Below are positions 23,662 through 46,479 of a DNA stretch of 64,000 bases, piece after piece. The notes beneath the pieces are model-generated. The model was not told the origin of the DNA, did not search any database, and saw only the letters and a program-made list of their open reading frames with translations. The number at the start of each line of letters is the position of its first letter. Position 1 is the stretch's first letter. A program made the translations under genes and the position numbers. Origin of the DNA: Lophium mytilinum (lineage: Eukaryota); contig MU004192.1 of NCBI GenBank assembly GCA_010093605.1, positions 876,882 to 940,881 on the forward strand. The letters are read 5' to 3'.

Positions 23662-26460
23662 CTACAACCCCATCATCCTCCTCTCAAACCTCCCTAACCT
23701 CGGCGGCGTCTCCTCTAGCACATCCAAACTCCCCTCTCGCTCCCTCACCCCCCTAACTCTAATCTCCTCCATCATCAGCGCCTCCTCCGCCTCCCCCGAA
23801 TTCTCCTGCTCATGCTGCCACGCCGGCAGCCTCGTCCCCCGTGTACGAACCGCGTTCGCGTTCCCACTCGTTGGCTGCGCTACCCCACTCGCCCGCGGCC
23901 GCTCCCGCTCCTCATCCCCATTCGACGCCGCGTTCCTGCGGCGATGCGGGTGGTACGGCTGCGACGGGCGGGCGCCGGGCGTCGGGAGGCGGGAGCTGTG
24001 CATGCGGGTTGCAGAGTGCGTTGGGCGGGGCGGCAGGACGGGGGTGGGGAGGGAGAGGGGTGGGAAGAGGAAAGAGTCGCGGGTTGGGGCGGTGTGGGCC
24101 CCGTTCTCCGAGAAGCGGGGCGCACGCGCGCTTCTGGCGGTCGGGATAGGTTGGGTTGGGCGGGGGGAGATATAGGCCTCGTTTTCCGAGGAGTGGAGGG
24201 CTTGGGGGCTCCGGGCGGCGTGGATGGGCGGGGGTGGTGGGATAGGGGAGTCGTGGTCTGAAGAGCGGGATGCGCGAGGGCTCCTGGATGCGTGGATGGG
24301 GGGTGCTGGGGGGCCGGTGTAGGATTCGTTCTCTGAGGAGCGGGGAGCGCGGGGGCTTCTGGTGAGCATGAGAGACCCGCGTGGACCGCTGGAGACGCGA
24401 GGGGTACTGTTTTGTGCAGCTCGTAAGGGGTTTGGTACGTTCGGTGAAATTCGAGGACCAGCGGGGACTTGGCGGTTTACGAAGACTTCTGGGATGGGGA
24501 GAGGTTGCAAGTTGGGGCTGTCGGACCTTTGGTTGCGTACCGATATTCGCGGTGATGATGCAGATTCGGCGTTCTCACTGGACCGGGCCTGTGTTCTGAT
24601 AAAAGCAGCCGTTCGCAGCTGCTGGTCGTTGCTGCTATCGAAAGGGGAGGCACTCTGCTGACGCCGTGGAGTTGGTATTGGGCGAGGGGCTCTAGGAGGC
24701 CGGGCAGATATTGGAGGGGGGAGCGTACTACCACTAGATCGGTTATGGGATCTGGATCTAGCAACCAGACTTGGATTGTATGTAGTTCCTGTAGTGAAAG
24801 GGAGGGGCGAAGGAATGCGAGTTCGTCGAAGTGACCCAAACGTCGAGCGTTTATTTGAGCGTTTAGAGCTTGTTCTTGCTGGCAGCGGAGCAGGAATCCT
24901 GCGTGGAGAGATAACAACAGGACGCGGAGAGCCTAGCCGACCAGATATACCGACTGGCTTCAAATTGATTCGTGGTTGCGAGCTTGCCGTGTAGTACGAT
25001 ATCGATGTACTAGATGATGAATTATGCATGTGAGCATGTCCGCGTGATTGGACCAAGTCGAGAGGGGAAGATAAGTCTAGTCGTGCAGCAGTAACAGGGT
25101 CGCGATAGGATATATCAAAGTCACTAGGTATGACTAGCTGATTACTGCCTGTGATGTATGGTCGGCCTTGTAAGGAAGGGGAGCTTGGTGGAGGAGAGCT
25201 TGGTGGCAGTGACGACATGCTGGCAGCTGCAAGAAGATTGGGAGTGGAGTGGCTTGATCGGCGCGCAGGTCCATCAGGGCGCTGCCGTTCATTGTACAAT
25301 GGCCGTGAGAACGCGGAGATGCCATCGTATTGGGCCCGTGCAAGTGATGAAACTCTCCTCGGGGTTCCGCGGGATTCTGGATGGGATGGAGCTCTTGCGC
25401 GGTGATCGGCTGAGGACATTTGAGGATCTGCACGATTTCGAACGGGCGACCTATGTGAAAATGCGAGGTCGCAAGCACGTCTCATATCTTCTCGTGTATA
25501 TGTTGGTGGTATCTTGATGGTCTCATGAAACGTGTAGTACGTGCCGTGCGCGGTATCCTCAGCAAATCGACCACTCAAGTGCATAATTGGATGAGGATCG
25601 GCATCTCGGGGCATACGAGATCCACCATGTAGAGAGGTTGGTTCCACTAGGTGGCTATCCGATCGTCTTGAGCGCACTCTGCCTGTTGGTGGTTGTCGTC
25701 CAGCTGGTCCATCGAACGGTGAGCTTTGACTAGCACCTTCCGGAAAACGTGACCTGGGGGATGATGCCGTAAAACGTGGTTCGAGAGCGTAACCCTGTCC
25801 TCGAGAGTTCTTGAACGATTCTGAAATGCGGCTTTGGACGAATATACTCTGCTGTGGAGTTGCTACACCCGCAGCGACAGCCATCATGGCTGACATTAGT
25901 TCAGGATCCGTCCTGGCTCGATGTGCCATCATGCGTCTGAATGGTTCGCGATTAGCCTGCACCAAAGCTCCGGTCGATGGGTGAGGAATTGGGGCCGGAC
26001 TGGGCCGTGTAGCAACGAAACCAGAAAAGCCAAACTGGTGTTCTTCTAGCGAGGAGCGGACGTCGCGTTTAGATGTTGCTGAGCTTGAACGTGGTAACGA
26101 TGCCTGGCTTGCTTCCTCAGAGACCGAAGCAAGATCAGACCCGTCGATTGCCGCAACCCTGCTTTCCTCTGGGCAAACGGACGATTCGGGATAGCTCACA
26201 GATTCTGGAGATTCTATATCAGGCTCAGAGAGTGTAGTCACATGAGGCCGCATGTGTAACAGGTTGGTGTGCGTAAGAGCTGCGTAGGTGGAGCGTTGTG
26301 GACCGCGATGAATGCGAGGAATGCCACTCGCATATATGTTCGGTCTTGCAGACATGGCACTCCGGAGCGAGCTTGCAGAGTTCAGCGTGGACAAACGCCG
26401 GCTCGCCTCTTCGAGGTCCGCGGTAGTCAATGTGATCTCAGAGGGCCGACAGCGGAGCAT
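23662..26460 (-). CDS. 932-aa largely disordered Ser/Pro/Arg-rich protein with an N-terminal Cdc26-like motif
   Basis: Single long ORF. The N-terminus MLRCRPSEITLTTADLEE resembles the APC/C Cdc26 N-terminal peptide (MLRRKPTRLELKLDDIEE). Confidence 0.7.
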   Translation of the reverse strand: MLRCRPSEITLTTADLEEASRRLSTLNSASSLRSAMSARPNIYASGIPRIHRGPQRSTYAALTHTNLLHMRPHVTTLSEPDIESPESVSYPESSVCPEESRVAAIDGSDLASVSEEASQASLPRSSSATSKRDVRSSLEEHQFGFSGFVATRPSPAPIPHPSTGALVQANREPFRRMMAHRARTDPELMSAMMAVAAGVATPQQSIFVQSRISESFKNSRGQGYALEPRFTASSPRSRFPEGASQSSPFDGPAGRQPPTGRVRSRRSDSHLVEPTSLHGGSRMPRDADPHPIMHLSGRFAEDTAHGTYYTFHETIKIPPTYTREDMRRACDLAFSHRSPVRNRADPQMSSADHRARAPSHPESRGTPRRVSSLARAQYDGISAFSRPLYNERQRPDGPARRSSHSTPNLLAAASMSSLPPSSPPPSSPSLQGRPYITGSNQLVIPSDFDISYRDPVTAARLDLSSPLDLVQSRGHAHMHNSSSSTSISYYTASSQPRINLKPVGISGRLGSPRPVVISPRRIPAPLPARTSSKRSNKRSTFGSLRRTRIPSPLPFTTGTTYNPSLVARSRSHNRSSGSTLPPPISARPPRAPRPIPTPRRQQSASPFDSSNDQQLRTAAFIRTQARSSENAESASSPRISVRNQRSDSPNLQPLPIPEVFVNRQVPAGPRISPNVPNPLRAAQNSTPRVSSGPRGSLMLTRSPRAPRSSENESYTGPPAPPIHASRSPRASRSSDHDSPIPPPPPIHAARSPQALHSSENEAYISPRPTQPIPTARSARAPRFSENGAHTAPTRDSFLFPPLSLPTPVLPPRPTHSATRMHSSRLPTPGARPSQPYHPHRRRNAASNGDEERERPRASGVAQPTSGNANAVRTRGTRLPAWQHEQENSGEAEEALMMEEIRVRGVREREGSLDVLEETPPRLGRFERRMMGL

Positions 26461-27796
26461 GGTTGAAAGGAACGGCCGGAAAGGGGCGTATTGTTGAGCG
26501 AACGAAAATGCTCAGAGGCAATCCAGGGCCCGCAGATGGGGGTGAAAGCAGACGGTCGTAGAGAAGCATGAGATGAGAAGGGCTGCGAAGGCAAGGGGAA
26601 GCGATAGAAAACATTATGATGGTGGCTTCCGACTGTTTCAGTATGTGTGCAGAAAGTGCATATGTCGGTCAGGAGATTTATCGGAAGCCACCTTGATCCA
26701 ACAACGCAGAGGCTTGTGATGGAAGACCGAGAAGGAATCATAGATGACAGTTGGCGCGGAAGGCTTGCGAAAGTATAAGAGGTACCTAGATAAAGTATGT
26801 ATATGAAATATAGGCTACGCGTCAGTTCATCTAGAAAGCGGTCCGCTACATGTCTAGCAAACTAGAATGAACCATTTAGCTGGCCAAGGTTTGTAGAAGG
26901 AGCATCGTTAGTATTGCGGAAGGACTGATCAAGCCCAAGAACCTAAAAGTAGGCCATCGAGATGGGTGAAATGACACTGCCGCGTTTGAGGCACGTGACC
27001 AGCTAGCGGGAGCGACCTGGCATTTAGTATAGTATGCGGCACGCTGGGCATAAAACAGGGGCAGGCGTACTGCTTGTGTACACCTTTCTGTCGCTGCTTG
27101 TGATGTTTCTCTGCATTTTAGAAATATACACGAGATAGAAACTCTTAGCTTTGGGCTATGTAGGAACACGTTGAGGCACTCCAAGCAGATGTAAACACGA
27201 CCACACGAGGTTGAATGCTTGCTGAGTGTGCCACATTACTCAGGTCCAGCGTGTGCGTGTCGATGCAAGCAGATTGCTGCGGTAGAGGTTGCTTGTGTCC
27301 TATCTGAGATACGGACTGCGCATATACAGTTTCCCCCTGCCAGATGATGCAGCAGCCATTGGGGAGGATGCAGGTGGTGCTGGCGGCGCAACGGGGCGGA
27401 GGATGAGGCTCTCGGTCTGATGTTGGCCACTTCGGGGGCTGCTGCGGCGAAGTCCTGACGGCGTATCACGATAGGTAGCTAAGAGAGGCGTGGTGTTGAG
27501 GACCAAGGACGTAAGCGCAGACGTCGGCCGCGAATCCGCAGGGCACAGGTCCTCTATTCCGCCATCAATCAACGACACGACTGCCACAGAGGCCCGCCCT
27601 CGACGGCCCCCTACATACGAAAGCCTTGCCGATCCTACGCAATTCCTGGGCCACGGGCCTGCAACATACACGGCCAAATCTCCCGCAGCCGTCGCCCCCA
27701 GTTCCAAGCTTCGCTGCCCGCACAACCCCGACCTCTCCACCGAACGACGACGACCACCACCTTGCTCGTTTCCGCACCACTCGCTCCAGCGCCGCC

Positions 27797-30450: not shown

Positions 30451-31563
30451 TAACCACTTCTTTGTCGACCGTGCCGCTTCCTCCTCTCGCCGGACGCATA
30501 GAACCACACTACCTCGTCATCACATCCACCTTAATTCCGATTCTCGTTGCACTGTTACCAATGTCCTTTATCATATACCTTCTCATACATCCTATCCTTT
30601 CAGCATTATTCCCAGCATCCAGTTCAACTCCATCCCAGCGCTTGGCGTCCCGGCGTTTCTCATCACCCTTACTTTCTCTTTCGTTCCGCTGCCCTATCCT
30701 CGTTGACTACCTCGCATCTGTTCCGTGTCGAAAATCAAGAAGGAAAATCTGGAAACCTGGCATACTTTGATTCTCTAACATCTCTCCATTTCCACTTTTT
30801 CCCATACACTAATGCGCGCGCTCCGGGCCCACGTGAAGCAGGGGGTTGCGGGAGGCTTCTTCAGACCGGATACCTCGGGCTTGCATGCGCTTCTGGGTCT
30901 GGTCTGAAATTTTGTGGGGCTTTATATATCTCGTTTGTGGGGTGTTGAATATGGTTACAGGGGTCGAGCGAATTGCACGCGCAGGCGACAACGCGGGAGT
31001 TGGCGGTGTTGCGCATACGGGCTTTTTTGTATCTAGTCTGGACTTCCGAGATAGAAGGGAGAAGACGAAGCAGGCTCTTGATGTTTAATTTGTTGACTCG
31101 ACTCCTGTATGTGAGACTCCTTGTGTCTTGTGGCTAGCCCAGCATCTGAAGTTTACGTTTTTTCCGGTTGGAAGACGTAAACGACACGCCGCAATCAGTG
31201 TCGAACTGAACTACGCATCGTGATTTCTCTGCAAGAGCTAGCGCCATGGGATATAGCAGCTACTCTAGCATACTCCATATTAAGAAAGAGAGCAGTAAAT
31301 TCAATATGGCGCTACATCCGAGCCGTAACATTATTCTTTTACCATCGCCTAGGCTATGGATAGAGCTTCAGGACTCTGTTCTGCTACTACCCCGCCTTCT
31401 TTTTATCCGCAGTCCATGATATGGCGTTTGCTCTTCCTTCAGTCTTAATCTCTAGCTACCCAGACCCTTATTGACAACCCTAAGGGCTGCGCTCGAGGGG
31501 CTAGCACGTGACAAGATACCTGTTTGGGCAGGTCTTGGCAGTGCGCAGAAAGTATGGCAGGCC

Positions 31564-31652
31564 GAGAAGGTTGCGCCCAAATTGTAGCCAGTTTAACCGG
31601 AACCTAAAATCCCCCCCCTTTAAAATAGCTACAATCTGGGCGCAACCCTCTC
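31564..31652. repeat. Inverted repeat: 25-bp arms (23/25 match) with a 39-bp spacer
   Basis: GAGAAGGTTGCGCCCAAATTGTAGC (31564-31588) versus the reverse complement of 31628-31652, GAGAGGGTTGCGCCCAGATTGTAGC. Confidence 0.85.
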
Positions 31653-32155
31653 TGCAAGTGCCTTCTGTTACATGTATAGGGCTATGATTCAGCCTTGCAG
31701 ATGGGGCAACAGACCATACCATCTCGTGCAGTCAGCTCGTCCAGCTGCATGCTTCTTATAAGATGTTAAATTTCCGCGAAAACATCCTCTTGCGGACTTA
31801 TCTTTTCACTTCCAATGCAAATTGGGTCAACCAATGTCCCTTCTCTCTCTTTTGCGAGCCTTCTGGATTTCGTCATGGATCCCAAACTCTCATTCAACCC
31901 TCAAAATGTCATCTCGAACTCGAAACGCCTCCCAATTAGCTCAATAGAGTTTCTCCGGGGATAAGATAATTAATTCTCGCGTTCTTTCCTTGACACGTCT
32001 CTCAGAATAGACGTGTGTGCACCTTTTTTTTACTGCCTGCGGTGATTCGAACTATTCTTAAGAATTCGAATACATTCTTATCAGAGAGCTTGCTGTTACA
32101 AAGCGTAACCAATGGTATCAAACCCCCCAACCTCTCCCCTCCCGCGCTCTCCACC

Positions 32156-33774
32156 TCACGCCTTCTCCAACTCCTCAAACCTTACCCTCAACCCCATCGG
32201 CGCCAACAGGCCACCAGGGGTAAACTTCACCGTCACCCCATCTTCCAAACTCAACCTACTCCTTCTTACGCACTCCACCACCGCAACTCTAAGCTCCACC
32301 ATCGCAACCCCCTGTCCCAAGCACGCCCGCCGTCCCCCATGGAACGGCACATACTTCCCTCTCGCCGTCCATTTCCGCATGTTCGCGTGCATCTCCTCAG
32401 TGCTTCCTCCCCATCGCTCCGGCTTGAACTCCTCCGCATCCGCGCCCCACGCCGCCGTGTCCCTGTGCGCGCCTGTAGCCGTCCAGCCTACGTACGCGTC
32501 TTTCGGGATCTGGATATTGGACGGGCCGAGAGTGGCTGCGGCGGTGGTACACCGGTTTAGCAGCTGCGGGATGGGTGGGTAGAGACGGAGTGTTTCGAGG
32601 AGGAAGGAGGTGAGTAGTGGGCTCGCTTTCATGTTCGCGATATCCGTGGTAGCGTCGGGCGATGGAGAAGAGAATTCGGCGCGGAGGGCGGATTGGAGGT
32701 GGGGGTGGGCGGCGAGGAGGTAGAGGCAGGTGTTGAGGCCTTGTTGGACGTTTTCGTGGCCCGCTATGAAAGTGATCTTCAGATTGTCGCCTGTGTTGCG
32801 TGTTAGATCGGTGTGAAGGGGAAGGGAGGTGGGAAAGGGGCGCACGGAATTGCTGCTCTGTCCATGTTCCGTCTGCTTTAGCTCGCTTCATGAGGGAGAT
32901 GAGTCGGTCGTCGTCTTCTGGGAAGTCTTTGGTTTGCTCGAGGACGGTGGTGACGAGCTCGTTTTCGAATTCGTGCACGAGGGCTCTGGCTTTTGTTCGG
33001 GATTCGATGGGGAATTTGTCGAGGAAGGGCGCGACGAGGAAGAGAGGCTTGAAGATCTGGACTTTGAGCTGGGAGTGGATGGCGTGGATGCGGGGGGTGT
33101 CTGAGTCGAGTGTCTGGTGGTGAATTAGCACCACGGTTGGGCCCTACATTGAACGCAATTGCCATCATTGATGTGGTTAGGTATATACCCACTTTGAAAT
33201 CCGTTCCCAGCACTGTCTCTCCAAGAGTCTGCATCGCAAACCTCTGAATAAATGGGTTCACCATCACACCCTTTCCCTGTGGCAGCTTTCTCTGCGCCTC
33301 CAACATCAACCCCACGAACTTCCCTGCATTTTTCTGGATCCCCTGAAAGTCGAAATCTTGCCGTTGCAACCCCGGCTGCATGACCGTACGATAGCTCTTC
33401 CACGTCTCCCCATGTGCTGAGATAACGTTATCCCCTGTGAACGCCGCAAGTACGCTATATGGTATCTTCTTCTGGTTCCCACTCTTCGCATAGACGTCCT
33501 CATGCTTCAGTACTTCAAAGAGAAGCTCAGGGCGTTGAACGAGGATGTTCCAGCGGCCGCCGAAGAAGTAGTTGACAGCGCCGTGGGCAGTGATGGAGGG
33601 CTTGATATACTGGGCGTATATTTCAAGTTGGTCAAGGTTGGTAAGAAAGCCGAGGAGGGACACCCAGATGGGAATGGTGGGGATGTTGCGAGGGAAGTTT
33701 GAGGGGGGAGAGAGGGCACGGTGGAGCAGGAGAGCCAGAGTGACGAGGACGCCGGCTATGACTAGGAGAGCCAT
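32156..33774 (-). CDS. DIT2: Cytochrome P450, CYP56/Dit2-like (N-formyltyrosine oxidase family)
   Basis: Exons 33774-33193, 33113-32846, 32790-32156. N-terminal anchor, KSGNQKKIPYSVLA..TGDNVISAHGETW, I-helix AGHEN (Dit2-like), ETLR, PERW and heme motif FHGGRRACLG. Confidence 0.88.
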
Positions 33775-34083
33775 GTTCTAGTGAAGAGGATGACAAAATC
33801 TGATTATGAAAGAATCGACGAGAACAGAAGGGAACAAATATCAAGGGCCGAAGAGCGAGCATATGGGACTAGACACTATGAAAAAATGATAGGGACGCTT
33901 TGATATATTAACAAGGACTTACGCGCGGGAAGCATCATCGGAGACCCCACCAGCCCCATGCAGCATATCCCCTGCAAGAAACATGATTACGGTGTCAGTC
34001 ATGCACAGCACGACTTCCTTCAGCCCCCAGGGTTTTGCATCCCCAGCTAGCCATGGTAAATCGGAGCGTCCAGCTCCCACGTC

Positions 34084-34292
34084 GCCAAGTAGTAAGCGGT
34101 GAGCTCGGGCGTTTGCGCTTAGACGCCCAGCTGAGTAGGGCGGTGCCTGCATGCCAAGAGCGTCCGCGGCCTCGACGTTTCGAAGATAAGCTGGGGCTGA
34201 AAAGCTACCTCTGATGCTAGTCTGCGATGCTTTTTGCATTGAGAGCGGTCTCGCCGTGGACATTATCGAGGCAAGAGGCGAAGTGCTTGGCA
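34084..34292. promoter_or_regulatory. PacC/Rim101-type sites upstream of the P450
   Basis: GCCAAG 34084-34089, TGCCAAG 34152-34158 and CTTGGCA 34286-34292. TATA-like element near 33903. Confidence 0.55.
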
Positions 34293-34499
34293 GGCTTTGT
34301 GAACACTCTTCTAGATGTCTTACATAATTTCTGAATAAGTGAGATTGAAATTGAGTGAATGATGATACATTACTGTGCTTTGTTGGTAATCGCGGTATTA
34401 TGAGAGTATACATATAAATGATGTCTACAACGAATCCCAGAACGCCGACTATGCAGATCGCTAAGTTCAAAGCTCTTATATAGACGCCACTGCTTGCCC

Positions 34500-36352
34500 T
34501 CATCTCTGAATCGTCGACGGCGCCAGACTGACCGCTGACACTCCAGCAGCTCCCTGACCTACACTCGGCGCCGCTTTTGCTTTTTCTGCGGCTATCTCGT
34601 CGTCTATCCTCTTCCTCCAGCCTGGCCCGTACCAAATGAGGACGATCACCATCAGAATACAGCTCATATCTAGAGCTGCCAGGCCGCGAAAGGTCCATCC
34701 AATCCCGATCTTTGTCACTATAGGGTCGATTACCAGCGAAGCCAACGACGCGGCTGGATTGCGGAAGAGACTAGCAATGGCCACAAGAGTGGCGGCTTGC
34801 CCTGGCTTAGCTAATGTCATGTACGTTGTGTTTGTCGCAAAGACCCAGCTCATGCTAAAGCCGACCACGGCTGTCGCCGTGAGCACAACGGCAGGGTGGA
34901 ACGCAAAGTAGCAGGACCATCCGTAGAGCTCGATGCCGATCGGGAAGAGCACCACGCCAAAGAGTTGTGATTTGATGCGGTGCTCTGGAGCAACTTTACC
35001 ATCGGGGCTCGCGCGTTGGGCGCGGGTGTGGTCCCAGTCTGAATAGCGGCCGCTGAGAAGTGACCCAGCAATCATCGAGACGCCAATAGGGATGTATGCG
35101 ACGCCAATCGCGGTTTCCGAGAAGTGATATTCGTACTTTAAACGGGTGGGGAGAGTGACAGCGACGCAGTAATAAGAGCCGAAGAGGATTGCTACGTTGA
35201 TGGAGACGAGTACGATTGGTGGGTATTTGAGCAGCTTGAAAACATTCATCGCGCTTGGACGCTTCATAATTATGGTTCCTGGTGCGATAGGAGCGCGAGC
35301 ATGGAAGTTGGGAAATGCGATCCAGGGTCCGTCGGCGTGGAGGGCTGAGTTCCCTACTTTTGCACGGAGTGTTTCGGGGAGGCAGAAAAGCATCCAAACC
35401 CAGATTGCGGCACCTAGGATGGCGAGAAAGCCAAATATCCATCTCCAAGAGGTACTACCTATGATAGCGCCCCCAATGACTGGTCCGAGCACAGGTCCGA
35501 GCTGGGGACCAAGCATGAAGCTAAGTAAATTAGTCATATGCACACGTGGCCCTGTCGCGGTGAATGGTACTAACATTGAGATAGCTCCTGCTCGGATCTT
35601 CGGCTCATACATGTCCGCGATGGTGCCTGCCCCTAGACTGGCGACGCTTGATGCGCCAGTAGCTTGCAAGATACGCAAGAAGAAGAGGGCGCCATAGTTG
35701 GCAGGAATAAAGATAAGTATGGCATTAGCGAGTACGAATATTAGAAACGATATGGTGTATAGCGGCTTCCGGCCCATGAAGTCTGCACAGGCTCCCCAAA
35801 AAAGAGGCTAAGAGAAATCAGCTGTCTGAGTAATAGGGATAAAGACCAAAATAGGCTATTCCATACTGCGATAGCAAAGACTAGCATGAAAATGGACACT
35901 GTGGCGTTGATGGCTACTCGACTGACGTGGAAATCTATGGAGAGCTGAGGCAGAGCTGGGAGGTAGATGTTCCCGGCGACAGGAGCTAGAAAAGCAGCGG
36001 CTGTGACAATCGCAAGGAGAAATTTGCGGCGGCCATCGGAGAATGCTGTATATGGTGGCTTCTGGGGCTTCGACAACGGAGCTTCAGTCTCGCTTCGAGG
36101 GAGCAGGAGAGAGGTGTCTGAGAAGTCGCGAGCTGGCGCGGGATCGTTGGTTTCAGTCTGCGAAAGTAGAGAGACGGAAGAAGAGTTGCGGCGATGTCCA
36201 ATAGCATGTTCAGGCTCAGCTGCAGGGACGGAAGAGTAGCTGGAGGAATTGCCACGATAGCCCAAGGAAGGAGTTTCATGACCAATAGTGATGGTCGGAA
36301 CTTTCTGCAGAGGATAGATTGGCTGCAGCGGAACCGAGGAGGGAGCTGCCAT
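34500..36352 (-). CDS. MFS DHA1 drug:H+ antiporter, Dtr1/QDR-like
   Basis: PPYTAFS..IYLPALP, motif A-like D(F)MGRKP, GAGTIADMY, motif C LGPQLGPVLGPVIGG, WRWIF, LPET and PEHRI. Two introns near 35807-35865 and 35521-35570. Orthology to yeast DTR1 is inferred from context only. Confidence 0.9.
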
Positions 36353-36898
36353 GGTGGAGTGACAAAATTCGGAGTAGAGAGAAGAGAGACGGAAGAGGGG
36401 AAGGGCGATAAGGCGAATAGACAGCGTATAGCTTTCACGCGGAAGTCAGACTGCCCTATAGCGGCATCATTGCCTCGACCCGCAGCATCGCTCAGCCCTC
36501 AGCCCTGTGCGGGGGGGTAGGTCCTACAGCGCACGGTAACATCGACTGGGCGTCTTGGACTCATCTCAGGCGGGCTTGGGACTCGACTTTTGCGGTGAGC
36601 ATGGTGAGACGGCGGCTAGCTAGCAGACGGCGAGGAAAGGGCAAGCACAGCCGTATCAAGGGCCGTGGAATGCATGTCGGTCTGGAAACTAACATTAGAG
36701 TATGCATGCATGGCTCAGGAGAACTCGGAGCGTGGGTTGCATAGCGAAGCTAAAAAGGAGCAGATCTCAGCCCCGATACCAAGCTTCAAGCCTGCCTGCT
36801 GTCTGAGCAAACGCCGAATGTTGTTGGTGGCATAGTTGTGTCGGGGAGACGCGAGAGGGAGCGGGCGGCATGAGCTGAAGTTGCCCAGCTATTCACTG

Positions 36899-37318
36899 CT
36901 TGGCAGCCCCAGCCACCTTGAGCTTAGCTCCATTCTAGCACCAATCGCACGGTGCCGTTGGATACATTGCGCCAGCCACTGGTCTGAGCGCATGCAACCC
37001 TCGCCAGTCACTAGGGACCTGTGTGGGCTAGCTGCCAAGTAGGGCTGTAATCCTACGATTTGCTAAGACGAGCATCGGCTACGGATCATGCAATTGGCGT
37101 AGCCGCCCTAAAACGCAACTCCACCCGTTGTAGGGCTGAGACTCCACACCGCAACCCAACCCACCTCGCGTCCCAATGCATCAAAGAACACCCGCGGCGG
37201 TGCACGCTACGGGCACTACCATAGTAAACATGGGCTTGCGGGGACCAACACGTACCGCCGACATGTCGCCGATGACAGGCTCGGCCTGCTGAACAAACGG
37301 CGAGCTGGGCACTTGGCA
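36899..37318. promoter_or_regulatory. Three TGCCAAG (PacC/Rim101-type) sites in the divergent MFS/Dit1 promoter
   Basis: CTTGGCA 36899-36905, TGCCAAG 37033-37039, CTTGGCA 37312-37318. TATA-like TATATAG near 37482. Confidence 0.55.
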
Positions 37319-37606
37319 TTACGGCTGCAGCAAGGTGTGCGACTGGAACAGCTGGCAGGCCCTGATAGACCGCTGTGCCGGCGGGCGGTCCAGGATGCTG
37401 CGAATGCTTGTCACTGCTCTAAATCCGACCTGGGGGTGAGGCTGAAGCCATGGGGTGCTAGAATGCACCTTCGGGCATAGGTATATAGTTTCCTGAAGCA
37501 GACCAAGACTATCCTTTATCAAACTCACCATCTATCATCTTCTCTTCGCTTTTACTACTCATCAATCGCTTGATTTCTGTTCAATTCCTCCTATACTACC
37601 GCAATA

Positions 37607-39513
37607 ATGGTCGAAGTCAAGCGTGGTGATTCCCCTTATCATCAGATCCGTGCCCAATACACTCGCGACGCTGAAGGCAAATTGCTCGCCGTCTTTGGCC
37701 CAGAAGCTCTTTTAGTCGAAAAGGACTGGGAAACGTACTGGGGGAGATTTGTCCAGCCCAATGCCACTGCCAGCAAACGAGCCATCACTACAATCAGCTC
37801 CTCTCTCACAGCCTTCGAGGTCGACAATCCTACAGGCGTCATCGCCGAACCCCTAGACTCCAGTTCTGTCACACCGTCACAAACAATTGAAATATGGGAA
37901 ACCCAGCTCGAGGACGAGACACAGATTCGTGGCCTCCTGAAGCTCCCCAACTCATACTTCAAGAAGCCAGTCACCGACGCTGTTGCTGAGTGGGCTGTTT
38001 CGCTGGTCTTGAAGACGGCGAGACTTGCACATTGCCAACCTCTACCGGAAGAAGATGAGAAAGCGATGAACCTAGCCAACACCATCACCGATATCTTCTC
38101 AGACACACTACGAAACATTGCCGATGGGGATCAGTGGGACTTCGGAGGCCGCGATTACTTCAGGGACAGGATACTTCTCTTCACATCTCGAAAGCAGAGG
38201 ATCGATATGATTCTTCCTGCGTTCCCGTGCAAGTCTTCTTCTCTGAACAAGGTGGCAGGAACTCGCCCGGATAAAGGCGAGGAGCTGGGCCTAAGAGGCC
38301 TGTATCTTTTCGTGAAGGATATCGAGAAGATTTACCCTCCGGGCGCATGCTGCTTTATCGCATCTGATGGTCACGTCTTCAGTGACAACAGTAAGCACAT
38401 TCAAACGTTTCCGGTAGCAAGATGCTAACCTCACCAGTCGGTGTCGATGACGAAGTAGTAGACACCTACAGCTCCCAGCTCATCGAAATGAAGGACGCCA
38501 TGTTAGGCCCCGAATCGAACCGCATTGGCTTCTTCGGCCTACCCGCCCTCTTCGCTCTCGGCGAACTCAACGCTCCTACATCTGCGGTTGCTAAACTCGA
38601 CCTCCCCAATTATGTCAATACCAAACACACCGAGGACGCCAACCTGTGCCGTAAGCTCATGGTACATGCTTTCGGCATCGACGGCTCAGCGCTCCGCAAC
38701 AAAATTGAAAGCGGCGATAAGGCAGCACTAGCCCTCTACCGCGGGTTCACACGCTTCATGCTTGAGGACCTCTCCCACAACGGCTTCATGATGTCGAAAT
38801 CCAAGTCCCAGCAGAAGAAACTCGCTGCCAAAATTGCTTTTGAGATGCTCAAGCGCAACCAAGCTTACTCCAATCTTTGCGAGCTCCTCTTCCCCGCCTC
38901 CGTCCGCCTCTCCATCCACGCCCACGTCAATTCCGGTCCCAAGTTTGGCTGTAACCTTCTTTCACGTTTTAACTGCCGCACCACCGCCTCCCTGCTTGAC
39001 TACTCCCCTGAGAAAACAGACGACCTCCTGCATGTGCCCACCCCCTGGCACAACACGATGGTCAAGATGGCGCCCCAAGATGGCTTCCTCCTTATCAAAG
39101 CCTGCCTTGTGCATGAAGCCATTGGCGAGGGCAAATACACCTCCGCCTGGGTCGAGTCCAACCTAACTACCGGTGAGGGCGGGTACTTCCTCCTGACATC
39201 TACCACGCCCAAGGCCCGCAAGATCAGTCTCGCACAGAAGGTCAACTCGCGCATTATCCCTTCGTTACGTCTGGCAACCAACTTCTCTCTGTCTGCAGAA
39301 CGCAGGAAGGCACTCATCGACGACGAGACATTCTCGCCTGGCGGTGCTGCGGCGCAGGCAATGCTGTTCTCGGCAAATGAGCAGAAGCTGGTGCTTGAGC
39401 GAAGGGAGAGCATGGGGATCAAGAGTGCGGGCATCAAAAGCCCGACCAGCCATAGTCCGTTTGGAAGTGGAGTAGGGAGTTTGGCGAGGAGGTTTACGAC
39501 GATGAGGGTCTAG
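37607..39513 (+). CDS. DIT1: Dit1/PvcA-family isocyanide synthase (pyoverdine/dityrosine biosynthesis protein)
   Basis: Exons 37607-38390 and 38438-39513 (intron GTAAGC..CTAAC..CAG). Motifs LPAFPCKS, KVAG..PDKGEELGL, SDGHVFSD.IGV.D, LYRGF.RFM.EDL, RNQAYS, RLSIHAH..SGPKFG and HVPTPWHN. Confidence 0.93.
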
Positions 39514-40920
39514 GCGAGAGGTGGAAACTGTGTAACGGTAATTGGTTTCAAATTGTTTTCGTTTGGTCAAGTTGTCTACTTTCTTTTGCCACTTCGTCTA
39601 CGGATGATTGAGTGTTTCTGGTGTTCTGATACTGGTAATTTCATAGCATGGGCGTCTTATGGGCCTTTCACTTAGTAGTGTGGGGAGAAAATTGAATCGA
39701 GTCACTTCATTGCATTCACATTCACGCTGAAGACCCTCCGCATCCTACGTTTTAAGTCCTCTGCGCCCCATATCCAAGGCCGTATGGGTCCAACAAGTTC
39801 TCTCTCCAATAAAAAACCTGTAACTGTTAGATCCGCTTCTTCTTCTCACGAATGAGACTCAAAACGACCCCCTTTGCGTGCACGTAAAGGGTCCTCCGCG
39901 GCGCACCCGGTGGACCCTCCGCCTCCGCCACATCCGCTTCAAAAAGTCCCAGAAGTAACCGCCGCGGTTAGATCCGAGAACTTTTCTCCCAAAAGTACCA
40001 AAAGTCTAGGCATTGAGGTCTTGTCCACCACACATCGTGTCTACTCAAGAGGATGTCATCACCACAAGTCACGTGCATCTCACATGTCATGTAAATATCT
40101 CTCGGTATAAAGGAACGTCAACCACAGGGCCTGGATATTTTCTTCATGGAGGCGGCAGTGGTTTTATGGGGGGTAGTACCTCGAGAGTATGAACAATTCG
40201 ACGAGCGTGGGTTGCTGTCAAATAGATCCAGGATGTCCCCATGGTGCTGCTGGAGGTCTGGTAGTGGAGTCAAAATGACAGACGCAACTTCCCATGTGTC
40301 GTCGACTGATCAAATTCCGAGATAATCTACCTCGTGGAGGGACGGGAGACTGGCAGAGGTTGCAAAATCGCTGATGTCTAGACATCCAATGGGCTGGGTC
40401 GATACGAATATTTGAATGAAGACGATATGCATCATCCTTCGCTCTTTCCGCTCTTCATCAATTCCGCGAAGCGCTGATCTGCATGCAGTATTTCAAGTGT
40501 GTGGTTGGTTAGCTTCTTGGGATAGAGGTAGTCCCAATCACCGCGACTAATGAATGCCTCTAAACCCCAAGTGAGTGCTTTCAAAGTCACCTCCCACTTC
40601 ACAAGTATCTTTTGCTCGGAAGAGTGAACACCTAGAAGTAAGTATACTCACGTGGCTCGTATTAAGTCTATTCCACTGTAGAGGCCGCTGGGAATACTTC
40701 TTAGGTGTACCATCTATCAAATAGGAGGCATAATCTACTGACTTCAACGTTTTGGAGGACTATAAAACGTGTAGATGGATAGAAAGTGTATTAAATCATT
40801 GTTCCACCAGATTTCCCGAGGTGTACGCAGCGTCAATATATCTTCCTGATGACTGTATTCTCATATAAGATTGAGATTCGTCAACTCTGAGAACCTAACC
40901 CCGACCACAAGCAAGGCCGC

Positions 40921-43060
40921 TCAAACCTCAAAGTCCCGTTTCTTATTTACCGGCTCCGCCGCACCATGAACATAGACATCCAACTCAGCCTCCGCGCTCT
41001 CAAACTTCGTTTCTTTACTCGCCTGTCCCTCAACCGGCCAGATGCTACATACACCCCAGTACGCGATCGCGCTCACGATAATCCCGACCGGTAGCGCGAA
41101 GACGTACAGCCGTTGGGCTCCGAGTGGAATGCCGCTAACCCCGACCGAATGTAAGAAGCCTGGAAAGACCGGGACAATACCCGTGAAGTACGCAGTGTAC
41201 GCGCGGAAATTCATGCCGTGCCAGTACCAGTACGGTCCCTGTCGCGAAGTAGAGAAGAGCGCGTTGACATCGTAGTTCCCTTTCCGGACGAGGAAGTAGT
41301 CGGAGATTATAACGCCGATAACGCCCGAGAGGAAGATCTGGTAGCTGCCAAGGTAACTAGTGAAGGTGAAGGAGGTCTTGGTCAATTCCCAGGGGTTGAT
41401 GGCGAAAGCGATAATCATGCAGATTACGGCGCTGCGGCGGTATTTGATGAATCTGGTTATACATGTGTCAGAATGGTGGGGCGAGACGGTACTGCTTGAG
41501 AGAATGGAAGAAGGCTTACCGCGGCCACATCGCTGCGGTGTCATTCCCGGCTGCTATGAGATTGGCAAATATCATGGTCGTGACTTGGGCGAACGTGAAT
41601 CCGAGAGCAATGAAGAATACACCAGTGCGGGTCTTGGAGTCGTACTCCATTGTGAGGAAGCCGTCGAGGATGGCATTAGGGTCCCAGAGGATCTAGGCGC
41701 GCATGAGGGGATTGCTTCTTAAAGATAGACGTAGGAGGCCATACCTTTCCAAAAATGACCTTGCTCGAAGATGTCACAAACACACCAAAGAATGAGATAA
41801 GACCATAGCCCAGAGGCAGGCCGAAGAATTGAGTCCAAAGTGCATCATTCGGATGACGCGCATAGCGACTTATATCGGCGTTGTTCGTTGCGAAAGTTGC
41901 CATGTTCGCCGCCTGGATGAAGAAGTTGGTAAGAAACACCTGTTGATATGTTTAGTATCTGGTCTAATATCGCTATGCGAAGGAAAGTTGGGCGTGTACC
42001 CAAGCATGAGATGAGCCCTTTGGAATTGCAGAGCTTTCATGAATGATCGGGCCGATGCCATCTGCTTTTGAGAGAGACCTGTAATGAATCAGATACTGAG
42101 AAGGAGGGCCTTTCTAAGAAATTCGCGAACGCACCACCCGAAGAAGGTTATCAAGCACACAAACATGATGCCCGCTTTGAAAATGATAAGGCGGCCAAGA
42201 TTCCGTGGCCGAATAAATGCGTAGGCTGTGACAATGATCCACGCAACGCCAAAAGCGATCAACATCCCAGATGTCATTGCAACATCCGCAGGGAAGACGT
42301 TGTGGACGTGAGCAATGGAAGGAAATATGGCATGCAGCATTACATAGATGCAATTACCCCTATAATCGCCCGTTTTAGCATTTCGAGTCATCGGCATAGC
42401 ATGCGCTTCCAAGACTCACGTTGTAACCATTTGTACTCCTGACCAGATGATAGTCATAGCGTTCCTGTTGAACAGCGGCCAGTAACTGCCCCAAACACCA
42501 AAGCTAGCTCGGACAATGACCGGGAAAGGGACGTGGTACTTTGCTCCAGGTCGACCCGTCATGAGAAGCGGAACTACCACAATCCAGTGACCGAGGATAA
42601 CGCAGAGCCACGCTTCCCACTAAGACTAATATCCACGGTCAGTTTCGCGAAGCTGGTATGGAAATTAGAGATACTTACTAGTCCATTCTTCACTCCTGTG
42701 GAAGCCACAGTCCAGGAGGTGACACTAGCAGACTCTGCTACCCAAAAAAGTGCGTCTACAAAGTGTTCAAAAGTGTACATAACAGCAAGCTGGGAGGATA
42801 AATATGAGAAAGCTGGACGCTGTCGTCGCTCATAGGTGTCTAACTTACAAGACCATCTTCCCCATTTCCTGTCTTCGAGGGGTACGGGAAGCAAGTCTGT
42901 AGCTACATGGGTCGTTAGTGGAAATGCTACAACCACTCACAACGAGCGAGTCCCAAATCCGCCGGTAAACCTCCGTCCGATCAAGAAGATGTTTCCTCTC
43001 TCTGCTTAGGATGAAGACTTGGTTCTATCACGGCTTTAGGAAGTCCAACGGGAAGACCAT
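40921..43060 (-). pseudogene. NCS1 (Fur4/Dal4-type uracil/allantoin) permease, possibly pseudogenised
   Basis: Reconstructed about 8 exons: DLLPVPLEDRKW, YALFWVAES, GAKYHVPFPVIVRASFGVWG, NNADISRYA, NPW, DYFLVRKG, YWYWHGMNFRAY. There is an in-frame TAG at 42620-42622 if the first acceptor is used, and no clean in-frame start (TGA at 42981-42983). Confidence 0.6.
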
Positions 43061-44374: not shown

Positions 44375-46479
44375 TCACAACCCAGAATCAGTCTTCTGAT
44401 ACACCGGATTCTGATAGTACGTCTTCCAGTCCGTACACTGCGTATCCCAGTCGGAGCCGGGGAGGGTGATCTGGCTCTTAGCCTCTAGGAACTGCACACC
44501 GAGGCCCTCGCTGATGTGCCACGCGATATGGCAATGCATGAGCCAGGCACCGGGGTTGTCCGTTTGGAAAGCGATGGCCAGCCAGCCGGCGCCGGGCAGC
44601 AGGGCGACGTCGCGGCGGGTAGGGTTGTTCCAGGTTAGGGTCGAGGGGGAAGAGTTGATATCGAAGGTACCGGAGCCCGTGCCGAGGACGTAGAAGTCGT
44701 GGCCGTGCAGATGTATGGCTGGATTTTAGTTAGCAGCATTCAAAGAAGTGGCAGGATAGTAAAAGGAGGGAAGATTGATAGAGAGACAGAAAGAGGAGGC
44801 TTACGATGCGGAATAGGCACCTTGGTTCCCGGTGTCTCCTGGATAATCCAGTACGTCCAGATCCCCTCTGTGGGCAGCTCGATGAGGTTTAATACCGATG
44901 GATATGACGTGTTTCCAGTCTTCACGTACTCGAGCGTCGGATTGCGCCAATCAACGTCGATAGCGGAAACATTGACGCCCCAGACGACGATGTTTTGGCC
45001 GTTCGTCGTGACCTGCTCGACAGCCAGATCGACGTTGAGATTACCGACTTGATTGATGAAGTCCGAGCTGGAGACCGTGTTTGTGACCCAGGGTACGAGA
45101 GTCTTATCCTCGACGCAGCCCCCGCTGGGAGCTGTGAAAGCAGAGGTCGTTGGGTCGCCAGAGGCAGCACCGGCATAGCTGAAAACACTGCGGCCGTAGA
45201 AGTTGTTGGAGCTGGCGCAGTCGGTAGCAACTTCTGCGCGGAACCAGTAGTTGGAGACGGTCTGGTTGGCGTAAATGATCACGTCGTACCGTTGACCGAT
45301 GGCCAAGAGAACCCAGTTTGTGTAGTACGGTTTGATAGGAACCAAGTCAGCCGTAATGACCTGCAGTTGGTGGTTATCCAGCGAAACGCGGATGTTGTTG
45401 TCAACAGACGTGTTGATCAGACGTAAGCGATACTTTTTCCCCTTCGTGAGTTGGACTTGGTCATATGCTCCTGCGCCACCCGGGCTCTTATTCTTGCCAT
45501 TGATGAGAAGGGTATCCGCAGGTGGCGGGGGCTGTCCCTGCTGAAGGTTGCTGAAATGTATATTAGTATCGGCTTGAGACTACCAGGACGTATAGAAACT
45601 CTTACTTGGAAGCGATAACGTTAAGCTGATCTGCAGTACTATAATACCAGTCGTTGACTGGATAAGGACCTAGGTCAACGTCATAGTTTGCAGATGCAGG
45701 ACCGTTGATTTTGATCGCGCCAATGAGGCCGTCGCCGTATTGAGAAGAGTAATGGGAGTGATACCAGGTCGTGCCGAATTGGGTAGCTTTCCACGTGTAT
45801 ACTTTGGTGTCGCCAGGTGCGATAGGACCTAATTCTCGTAAGCCAAAACTACTCAGTACAATCGCTAGGCAAAGTATTACACTCGGTGATTCCGTTGACA
45901 CCATCCATAGCATTAGTGTTGAGCTGTCGGATACCGTGCCAGTGGATGACTGTGCCGTTCCCGGTCAACTTATTTACTACCGTGACCTGCACAGTGTCTC
46001 CCCAGTCTAGTTGAATCAGTAAATGACGTTGGGCGTATCTCGTAGGAGGTCCACTCACTGGCTTCAATCGTAGGACCTGGGTACTGGCCGTTATAAAGAA
46101 AGCATATCCGATCACCGTTCCCATCCGGATTACACGTCGTGTTCGTGACAGTCAGAGTGTATTGAACCGTGTTGCCGGTGGTTGGCCATTTTTTATCAAA
46201 ATCTGTCAAGACGGAATAGCCACTTGACCAGCAATTGCGTGAAGTTGGTCCATTGGTACACGCCGCATCGGCGACCTTGGAAGTCGAGCTGGGAGCGACC
46301 GAGCTAGTCTTGGAAGTCGAGCTGGGAGCAACCGAGCTAGTTGCACGGCGCACATTGTGAAGCGTTGCCCCAGCAGAGCCGCCTGGTCCCCATAGAACGT
46401 GATCTTGGGGGATTTGTGTAGCTGTTGTCGTGGAAGCTAATGCCAGAAGGCAGGCGGCGGCCAACTGCGTCACGCGCAT
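44375..46479 (-). CDS. Secreted laccase / multicopper oxidase (AA1, asco-laccase type)
   Basis: Signal peptide MRVTQLAAACLLALAS, a RR processing site, Cu motifs HWHG, WYHSH, PH|PIHLHGHDF and HCHIAWHISEGL, and the C-terminal DSGL*. Four introns. Confidence 0.95.
46276..46341. repeat. 33-bp tandem duplication in the laccase N-terminal linker
   Basis: CTTGGAAGTCGAGCTGGGAGC(G/A)ACCGAGCTAGT x2, encoding TSSVAPSSTSK twice. Confidence 0.9.

Follow-up and report, generated by a model that had tools for sequence, protein, structure and literature searches.

The window analyzed here, a stretch of 64,000 nucleotides from contig MU004192.1 of Lophium mytilinum, was found to carry three contiguous genes at positions 32156 to 39513, encoding a P450, an MFS transporter and a DIT1_PvcA protein. 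All three are intact, with no internal stop codon in any of the spliced models. As originally predicted, the P450 and MFS genes are on the minus strand and Dit1 is divergent on the plus strand. The interval runs from the P450 stop codon, whose first base is 32156, to that of Dit1, whose last base is 39513. The gene for the Dit2-like cytochrome P450 of the CYP56 family (32156-33774, minus strand, 494 amino acids) has three exons, 32156-32790 (stop codon included), 32846-33113 and 33193-33774, separated by introns at 32791-32845 and 33114-33192. The gene for the Dtr1-like, DHA1-type MFS transporter (34500-36352, minus strand, 579 amino acids) is located between the two enzyme genes and also has three exons, 34500-35520 (stop codon included), 35575-35807 and 35867-36352, with introns at 35521-35574 and 35808-35866. 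A divergent intergenic region (36353-37606) separates the MFS start codon from that of Dit1. The Dit1 gene (37607-39513, plus strand, 619 amino acids, isocyanide-synthase family) contains two exons, 37607-38390 and 38438-39513, and a single intron at 38391-38437. The distance from P450 to Dit1 is 3.8 kb, and the ORF scan placed housekeeping genes on both sides of the trio.

Contigs from the public run X1 covered the P450 gene (31657-33865), the MFS gene (34325-35807 and 35867-36838) and the Dit1 gene (37182-39725). All five predicted introns were exactly skipped and had GT..AG ends on the coding strand. Since the contigs join across five introns with canonical splice sites, all three genes are transcribed and spliced. 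With regard to the co-expression that the original prediction had proposed as a check, transcripts of all three genes are present in one RNA-like run of unstated growth state; this expression speaks neither for nor against a spore-specific role. Between the contigs of the divergent genes a gap of about 343 bp remains (36838 to 37182). The transcribed leaders contain 12 (MFS) and 7 (Dit1) upstream ATGs, and the intergenic region showed neither a shared promoter word nor an MSE-like motif above chance.

Pfam searches of stop-to-stop ORFs matched PF00067 (p450) on the minus strand at 32878-33774 (E 4e-8) and 32159-32887 (E 3e-36). The spliced P450 model is letter for letter the protein P0121, which carries the source name 'putative sporulation-specific N-formyltyrosine oxidase Dit2 [Lophium mytilinum]'. 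Searched with the N-terminal exon alone, the 120 matches listed all had E values of 1e-45 or better, and many were named Dit2. Full-length comparison with proteins named Dit2p or CYP56B1 gave identities of 40-47%. The value was 43.9% (501 aligned positions) for a protein with the source name 'putative cytochrome CYP56B1 [A. nidulans]', 40.4-42.4% for Dit2p proteins from Saccharomycetaceae and Candida, and 45% for Dit2 of Coccidioides immitis. Conventionally, a P450 is assigned to a CYP family when its identity to a named member exceeds 40%. On this basis the P450 falls within CYP56, as originally predicted, at values close to the threshold. In an alignment of the 66 matches of at least 460 amino acids among the 120 listed, the Cys of the heme-thiolate loop FHGGRRACLG was present in every protein, as was the E-N pair of the family I-helix motif AGHEN, and E and R of the ExxR motif (ETLR) were each found in 65 of 66; PERW is intact. 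Proteins of Coniosporium and Xylographa and four from Penicillium form a clade of seven with the P450 (SH-like support 0.999), and other Dothideomycete Dit2 proteins fall outside it.

The MFS gene matched PF07690 (MFS_1) on the minus strand at 34503-35807 (E 7e-31), with Sugar_tr also matched. Its product is 83% identical to the 'dityrosine transporter A' of Mytilinidion resinicola and 44-50% identical to proteins with the source name Dtr1. A crude hydropathy scan, which is no true topology prediction, showed 13 peaks that overlap in part, which would fit about 12 spans. A FastTree phylogeny was made from 108 sequences, a set without S. cerevisiae Dtr1, Qdr1-3 and Aqr1. The transporter was found within an 88-member clade (SH-like support 0.94) that includes proteins named Dtr1, those of yeasts among them, and all 13 MFS proteins for which a Dit1 or Dit2 match is present on the same contig; the remaining 20 MFS matches lie outside. 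The putative transporter groups with dit-linked and Dtr1-named transporters and not with other MFS proteins, in keeping with the Dtr1-like assignment made originally.

For Dit1, PF05141 (DIT1_PvcA) was matched on the plus strand at 37574-38428 (E 6e-28) and 38395-39510 (E 8e-45), with 98.5 and 153.8 bits against a curated cut-off of 26.4. This was the only domain detected, and it was present on both exons. The model is identical, letter for letter, to Lophium mytilinum protein P0001. Its full-length identity is 61% to the Coniosporium protein and 36-39% to the other 14 of 15 aligned Dit1 proteins, with 38-39% for the four yeast proteins in the alignment. To named Dit1 proteins outside the Lophium/Mytilinidion/Coniosporium group the identity is at most about 47%. 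The alignment has 71 invariant columns, including the LPAFPCK, SDGHVFSD, RLSIHAH and PTPWHN blocks. Lophium Dit1 ends in a variable C-terminal tail of about 100 amino acids which the yeast Dit1 proteins lack. In the stretch from residue 188 to 437, similarity was found to the solved structures of the isonitrile synthases 9dhm and 9dh4 (E about 2e-32) and of PvcA, 3e59 (E 3e-21). Judged from sequence, the protein is a single-domain isocyanide synthase (ICS) of the Dit1 clade and a member of the PvcA/IsnA isonitrile-synthase family, and the Dit1 identity claimed for it stands. The literature is in conflict as to whether such enzymes release an isonitrile or N-formyl-tyrosine: in the published excerpts available, PvcA did not rescue yeast dit1, and free tyrosine isonitrile was found in Phycomyces.

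The linkage of the three genes is conserved. Twenty-eight metagenome loci were informative, being of fungal type and reaching 4 kb or more upstream of Dit1. In 19 of these a Dit2-like P450 adjoins Dit1, and in 16 the MFS gene is present as well. The proteins p450, MFS and DIT1 follow one another directly in four Dothideomycetes of Table S4 in Nickles et al. (2023; PMC10153163): Lophium (BGC 1155), Mytilinidion, Coniosporium and Rhizodiscina. The synteny in relatives that was originally put forward as a check was thus found. The orientation of P450 relative to Dit1 varied in the metagenome loci, with 12 divergent and 10 tandem cases (duplicates included). In Lophium the P450 (minus) and Dit1 (plus) genes are divergent as in Saccharomycotina dit1/dit2, but with the MFS gene between them. 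This central MFS position was seen in three of the four Dothideomycetes inspected and in none of 17 metagenome loci. Only the gene order at the locus is slightly unusual.

The novelty implied in the original prediction did not hold. In their Table S4, Nickles et al. (2023; PMC10153163) enter the locus as BGC "1155_Lophium_mytilinum", and they also note an MFS gene in dit clusters of Dothideomycetes and Onygenales. Linked DIT1/DIT2/DTR1 cassettes have been described for P. stipitis (2009), Coccidioides (2025, with deletion mutants) and Penicillium Starships (2025). Because the gene set is described in several fungi and catalogued for the Lophium mytilinum genome, the cluster is real but ordinary, and already known. 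Two further statements, that standard cluster finders omit ICS clusters and that the dit product of moulds is poorly characterised, agree with the available text of Nickles et al. (2023; PMC10153163), in which dityrosine is reported from S. cerevisiae and C. albicans only.

For this locus it is established what the three genes are, that they are intact, transcribed and spliced, that their linkage is conserved and that the locus had been catalogued before. Taken together, Lophium mytilinum probably carries here its own copy of the dit (dityrosine) cluster of ascomycetes, in the three-gene form and serving a wall-layer pathway. Dit1 would convert L-tyrosine to N-formyl-L-tyrosine, possibly via tyrosine isonitrile. 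Dit2, the CYP56-family P450, would couple two N-formyl-L-tyrosine molecules oxidatively to N,N'-bisformyl-dityrosine or a close analogue, and the Dtr1-like MFS pump would export the dimer, which may then be incorporated into a spore or cell wall layer. For Lophium we infer from work on yeast and Coccidioides that the chemistry is of this kind, that transport is outward and that the dimer ends up in the wall.

The same trio could instead make a soluble secreted metabolite, tyrosine isonitrile or a P450-coupled dimer, exported by the MFS protein and acting in metal binding or antagonism. We regard this as possible but unlikely. A 2026 study, as far as its available text goes, found stable, weakly antibacterial tyrosine isonitrile in Phycomyces culture supernatant and ascribed it to a Dit1-like enzyme, but the new probe signals were confined to Phycomyces, in contrast to the A. 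nidulans sample. The trio is transcribed in the one available run, and both sequence and gene order set the Lophium/Coniosporium lineage apart; the MFS protein, however, shares its clade with yeast proteins named Dtr1, and the sole genetic test in a filamentous fungus that our sources contain (Coccidioides, PMC12077801) gave a wall phenotype. A related reading treats the Lophium/Mytilinidion/Coniosporium cassette as a separate dit sub-lineage in which the transporter moved between the enzymes and the product may be another one, such as a secreted tyrosine isonitrile dimer. Since the P450 groups apart from other Dothideomycete Dit2 proteins, this lineage could have diverged in function, and, because of this grouping and the Dit1 identity of at most about 47% outside the group, an old duplication or transfer may be its origin. 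We consider such a sub-lineage with its own product rather improbable.

A xanthocillin-type cluster, with the ICS product decarboxylated to a vinyl isonitrile and dimerised by a XanG-like P450, is brought to mind by XanG being a Dit2 homologue and by several P450 relatives with the source name xanG, two of which are among the four Penicillium members of the seven-member clade. XanB-type synthases are, however, fusions of ICS and dioxygenase, whereas the window Dit1 lacks TauD, contains PF05141 only and aligns end to end with yeast Dit1 proteins. The genome's ICS-TauD fusion is located in a separate catalogued cluster, BGC 1156, according to the catalogue entries available. No DJ-1/PfpI hydratase, TauD, methyltransferase or bZIP was found in the domain list of BGC 1155 as available or in the ORF scan, in which the absence of TauD and DJ-1_PfpI refers to 49 long ORFs. 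With neither TauD dioxygenase nor isocyanide hydratase found, a xan-type cluster is disfavoured and very unlikely. Finally, fungal genomes contain P450 and MFS genes in very large numbers and housekeeping genes flank the trio, so the three genes might be neighbors by chance without a common pathway. Nevertheless, the same P450 and MFS clades are found beside Dit1 in the 16 metagenome loci and in four named Dothideomycetes, Coniosporium has the trio amid flanking neighbors that are entirely different, and the Dit1 and Dit2 trees agree in topology in the published text available (Nickles et al., 2023; PMC10153163). The trio recurs in these metagenome loci and in three further named Dothideomycetes, so its adjacency is not due to chance, and we give almost no credence to this explanation, which conserved linkage disfavours.

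The locus matters little beyond bookkeeping. It is a clean example, from a melanised and bitunicate Dothideomycete, of the three-gene dit cassette, with splicing verified by RNA-like contigs, and its MFS-central gene order offers a minor evolutionary marker of one lineage of Dothideomycetes. It might serve as a test case for the question raised in the available text of Nickles et al., whether filamentous ascomycetes use these genes for a dityrosine wall layer or otherwise.

Compared with known systems, the A. fumigatus xan cluster (XanB ICS-dioxygenase and XanG) is alike in having a tyrosine-derived ICS product dimerised by a Dit2-homologous P450, whereas Lophium lacks the dioxygenase domain, isocyanide hydratase, methyltransferase and cluster transcription factor. 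S. cerevisiae DIT1-DIT2 and DTR1 belong to the same three protein families, with dit1 and dit2 divergent on opposite strands. DTR1 is unlinked to DIT1-DIT2 in S. cerevisiae, whereas the Lophium transporter gene is linked and placed between the enzyme genes, and all three Lophium genes have introns. Synthesis, coupling and export genes are also clustered in Pichia stipitis, but in the order DIT2-DIT1-DTR1, and this cluster is coregulated according to the published excerpt available. The same clustering is found in the DIT1/DIT2/DTR1/ATG22 cargo of Penicillium Starships; no ATG22-type gene is present in the domain list of BGC 1155 as available, and no trace of a Starship was noticed in passing in the window. 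The six-gene spore cluster of Coccidioides posadasii (PLoS Biol 2025, PMC12077801) shares linked DIT1/DIT2/DTR1 in a filamentous/dimorphic member of the Pezizomycotina. As far as the available text of that paper goes, it differs by a central P450 (DTR1-DIT2-DIT1 by locus tags, against a central MFS in Lophium) and by three extra genes, one of them a cutinase, tied to a yellow pigment. Deletion of DIT1/DIT2/DTR1 led to thinner arthroconidial walls in Coccidioides, whereas the Lophium cluster is known from sequence and transcripts. Within the dit superfamily of ICS clusters, divided into Clans 1-3 in the available text of Nickles et al. (2023; PMC10153163), the Lophium locus is listed as BGC 1155, and Clan 3 is mainly Dothideomycete and carries an MFS gene.

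Matches to three Pfam families were found on the raw reading frames of the window, which is fungal DNA with short introns: p450 in two pieces between 32159 and 33774 (minus strand), MFS_1 at 34503-35807 (minus strand), and DIT1_PvcA at 37574-38428 and 38395-39510 (plus strand). The same Pfam search found no further domains on these P450, MFS, and Dit1 reading-frame pieces. Gene models were built from splice sites and protein alignments. The P450 gene (minus strand) has exons at 32156-32790, 32846-33113, and 33193-33774 and encodes 494 aa, the MFS gene (minus strand) has exons at 34500-35520, 35575-35807, and 35867-36352 and encodes 579 aa, and the Dit1 gene (plus strand) has exons at 37607-38390 and 38438-39513 and encodes 619 aa. 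None of the three models contained an internal stop. The original prediction of a Dit2-like P450, a Dtr1-like MFS transporter, and a Dit1 gene at 32156..39513 was found to describe a real trio, with three intact gene models and confirmed Pfam families, and its coordinates are correct to the base, with the stop codons of P450 and Dit1 at the two ends. The models of these two enzymes were identical at every residue to two Lophium mytilinum proteins, P0121 and P0001, respectively; the source name of P0121 is [quoted passage not shown] The L. mytilinum MFS protein was absent among the candidates scored, which were the 8000 with the most words in common, and comparisons of the transporter used our own spliced model.

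We used X1, a single public sequencing run, to assess expression of the trio. The run is labeled RNA by a guess only and represents one sample with its growth state not given. Of the sampled words of the window 82% were present in X1. Its contigs over 31500-40500 skipped exactly the five predicted introns of 55, 79, 54, 59, and 47 nt, all of them GT..AG on the coding strand, and otherwise showed no differences. Since the contigs skip five canonical introns X1 was treated as RNA-derived, and the five intron-exact joints in three genes are most simply explained by P450, MFS, and Dit1 all being transcribed and correctly spliced in this sample. The run shows expression and not co-regulation, being one sample in which contig depth cannot rank the genes. 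The transcripts extended over 31657-33865 for the P450 (minus strand), 34325-36838 for the MFS (minus strand, two contigs), and 37182-39725 for Dit1 (plus strand), with about 343 bp between the divergent MFS and Dit1 transcripts; positions 33908-34208 and 39928-40500 were without contig cover. According to the RNA contigs the MFS has a 5′ leader of 486 nt (36353-36838, minus strand) with 12 upstream ATGs, and Dit1 one of 425 nt (37182-37606, plus strand) with seven. Such long, ATG-rich leaders hint that translation is regulated, or that non-coding transcripts from upstream were fused to them during assembly.

The longest word common to the region upstream of the P450 and that between MFS and Dit1 was 12 nt, a length reached by 10 of 200 shuffles, while the two core regions shared at most 10 nt (reached by 49 of 200). 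An MSE-like motif was absent from one of the two regions and occurred once in the other, vs. 0.375 times per kb in the window. Neither the promoter words nor the motif is above chance.

The Dit1 protein was aligned over its whole length with 15 Dit1 counterparts of yeasts, lichens, and moulds. It was 36-39% identical to 14 of these and 61% identical to that of Coniosporium, and 71 columns were invariant. Residues 188-437 matched two bacterial isonitrile synthases of solved structure, 9dhm and 9dh4 (E about 2e-32), as well as PvcA 3e59 (E 3e-21). No dioxygenase domain was found on Dit1 with Pfam. At residue 261 (window 38385-38440) Lophium has an Asn within the otherwise invariant SDGHVFSDCIGVDD block, a position at which 90% or more of the proteins in the Dit1 alignment carry Cys. 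Because the solved bacterial enzyme carries Leu here, the position is probably not catalytic.

The P450 was 71% identical to "P450-dit2" of Coniosporium apollinis. For Coccidioides Dit2 the identity was 45%, and for the Dit2p proteins of Saccharomycetaceae and Candida it was 40-42%. The CYP family assignment was supported by the A. nidulans protein named CYP56B1, to which identity was 43.9%. By convention members of a P450 family share 40% identity, and on these comparisons the Lophium protein qualifies, if only just, as a CYP56. Among the 120 matches listed, 66 relatives were 460 aa or longer and were aligned; the 54 shorter ones were left out. The heme cysteine (66/66), the glutamate and the arginine of ExxR (65/66 each), and E-N of the I-helix AGHEN (66/66) are all kept in the window's P450. 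In a tree rooted at its midpoint, without a non-Dit2 outgroup, the P450s of the window and Coniosporium formed a pair (support 1.0), which joined Xylographa and four Penicillium proteins (SH-like support 0.999). This group comprised P0121 and the protein-search matches P0125, P0174, P0192, and P0196-P0198. Separate from it were 29 other Pezizomycotina Dit2 proteins in one group (0.73) and 30 from Saccharomycotina in another (1.0). The window's group contained none of the other Dothideomycete Dit2 proteins (Diplodia, Phyllosticta, Rhizodiscina, and Amniculicola). The grouping with Penicillium and Xylographa suggests that the gene is an old paralogue or was transferred. A 2025 Starship study describes DIT1/DIT2/DTR1/ATG22 as mobile cargo in Penicillium, and the Penicillium P450s of this group might be part of dit clusters carried by Starships, or of xan clusters.

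The MFS transporter was 83% identical to "dityrosine transporter A" of Mytilinidion resinicola and 44-50% identical to proteins named Dtr1 by their sources. A FastTree phylogeny (n = 108) was made from our model and the 107 matches of at least 400 aa, omitting the 13 shorter of the 120 listed; S. cerevisiae Dtr1 was not among them. The window's MFS fell in an 88-member clade (SH-like support 0.94), with 20 remoter MFS matches outside. A match was considered dit-linked when its longest contig had the same size as that of a Dit1 or Dit2 match, or when locus tags were adjacent, as for Millerozyma Piso0_000575/000576. All 13 dit-linked MFS proteins were in the clade of the window's MFS, in agreement with the proposed relationship to Dtr1.

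Synteny was deduced from metagenome contigs, from equal-sized contigs in protein-search tables, which is indirect, and from consecutive accessions in a published table, which give order and no strands. Scanning metagenome contigs with a Dit1 alignment yielded 79 loci, divided by tblastn into 42 of fungal type (Dit1 score of at least 160 bits) and 37 short bacterial-type matches; about six exact duplicates and two pairs of near-duplicates are contained in the fungal-type counts. In 28 fungal-type loci the contig reached at least 4 kb upstream of Dit1. Nineteen of them had a Dit2-like P450 within 4 kb upstream, nine had no P450 upstream, and in 16 of the 19 an MFS gene was located further upstream too. 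All 16 loci, and one shorter duplicate, had the order MFS-P450-Dit1 and carried MFS and Dit1 on opposite strands; none of these 17 had the MFS in the middle. P450 and Dit1 were divergent, as in yeast, in 12 metagenome loci and tandem in 10 (L014, L017, L018, L021, L023, L025, L026, L040, L043, and L046). Therefore, the yeast orientation stated for the clans of the dit superfamily, of which Nickles et al. (2023; PMC10153163) define three, is not found at all fungal dit loci.

Table S4 of the same study gives order only. Lophium BGC 1155 reads p450-MFS-DIT1, Mytilinidion BGC 1152 DIT1-MFS-p450, Coniosporium BGC 140 p450-MFS-DIT1 with wholly different flanks, and Rhizodiscina BGC 1142 DJ-1_PfpI-DIT1-p450-MFS. 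The MFS is thus in the middle in three of the four Dothideomycetes inspected, an order that is not the common one. The expected synteny was found in that the three genes were together in these four species as well as in 16 of 28 metagenome loci. In Rhizodiscina lignyota DJ-1_PfpI, of the isocyanide hydratase family, directly adjoins DIT1, which would be consistent with hydration of an isonitrile intermediate to the formamide in that species.

The Lophium trio is flanked by housekeeping genes, with poly(A)-binding protein, FBPase, 5′-nucleotidase, and protein kinase upstream, and an NCS1-type permease, a multicopper oxidase, a Stu2/TOG protein, a WD40 protein, and a DJC28-like protein downstream. 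According to the domain list of BGC 1155 and a scan of 49 long open reading frames of the window, none of the genes next to the trio encodes a dioxygenase, an isocyanide hydratase, an ATG22-type protein, or a transcription factor. The multicopper oxidase (Cu-oxidase domains) is located two genes past Dit1, after the permease (44743-46512 and 40924-41951, respectively, both minus strand). In Mytilinidion resinicola a Cu-oxidase of three domains is located three genes away from DIT1 and a 2OG-Fe(II) oxygenase lies between them, and Cu-oxidase is absent from the Coniosporium and Rhizodiscina cluster lists. The Lophium/Mytilinidion arrangement is probably synteny inherited within one family, and the oxidase could act on exported phenolic dimers. 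Two open frames, 5178-8570 (minus strand, 1131 aa) and 23665-26511 (minus strand, 949 aa), had no Pfam match at E ≤ 0.001.

The identity and the linkage of the three genes are clear from these data. The best-supported reading is the pathway of yeast and Coccidioides, by analogy with which Dit1 would convert tyrosine to N-formyl-tyrosine, perhaps via an isonitrile, the CYP56 P450 would join two N-formyl-tyrosine molecules, and the MFS would export the dimer to be built into the spore or cell wall. The Dit1/Dit2/Dtr1 reading was found to be sound with respect to the identities, the MFS tree, and the recurrent linkage. Chance adjacency of the genes is rejected because that linkage recurs in other fungi.

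The main rival is that the trio makes a secreted isonitrile-type metabolite. Free tyrosine isonitrile was reported from Phycomyces in a 2026 study, and Dit1 was argued to make formyl tyrosine and not to be an isocyanide synthase (Basiony et al., 2020). A xanthocillin-type pathway has a Dit2 homologue, XanG, and an isocyanide synthase-dioxygenase fusion, XanB (Lim et al., 2018); it is disfavoured for Lophium because no dioxygenase was found on Dit1 or beside the trio.

The Lophium trio is a known kind of cluster, and Nickles et al. (2023) already catalogued its locus (Table S4); beyond this catalogue our literature search found nothing on an L. mytilinum dit cluster. Our additions are modest. 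They are RNA-supported gene models, including the 579-aa MFS model, and the observation that the MFS-in-middle order is a marker of a small lineage of Dothideomycetes in which the P450 unexpectedly groups with Penicillium proteins. According to Nickles et al. (2023) dit1 and dit2 are co-localised in 17.1% of ascomycete species, the Dit2 clade is monophyletic, the Dit1 and Dit2 trees match, and the mainly Dothideomycete Clan 3 has an MFS gene common to the Onygenales cluster. A coregulated DIT2-DIT1-DTR1 cluster was described in P. stipitis by Jeffries and Van Vleet (2009). In Coccidioides DIT1, DIT2, and DTR1 are adjacent with spore-associated expression, and deletion of the three genes results in a thinner arthroconidial wall (2025 atlas; PMC12077801).
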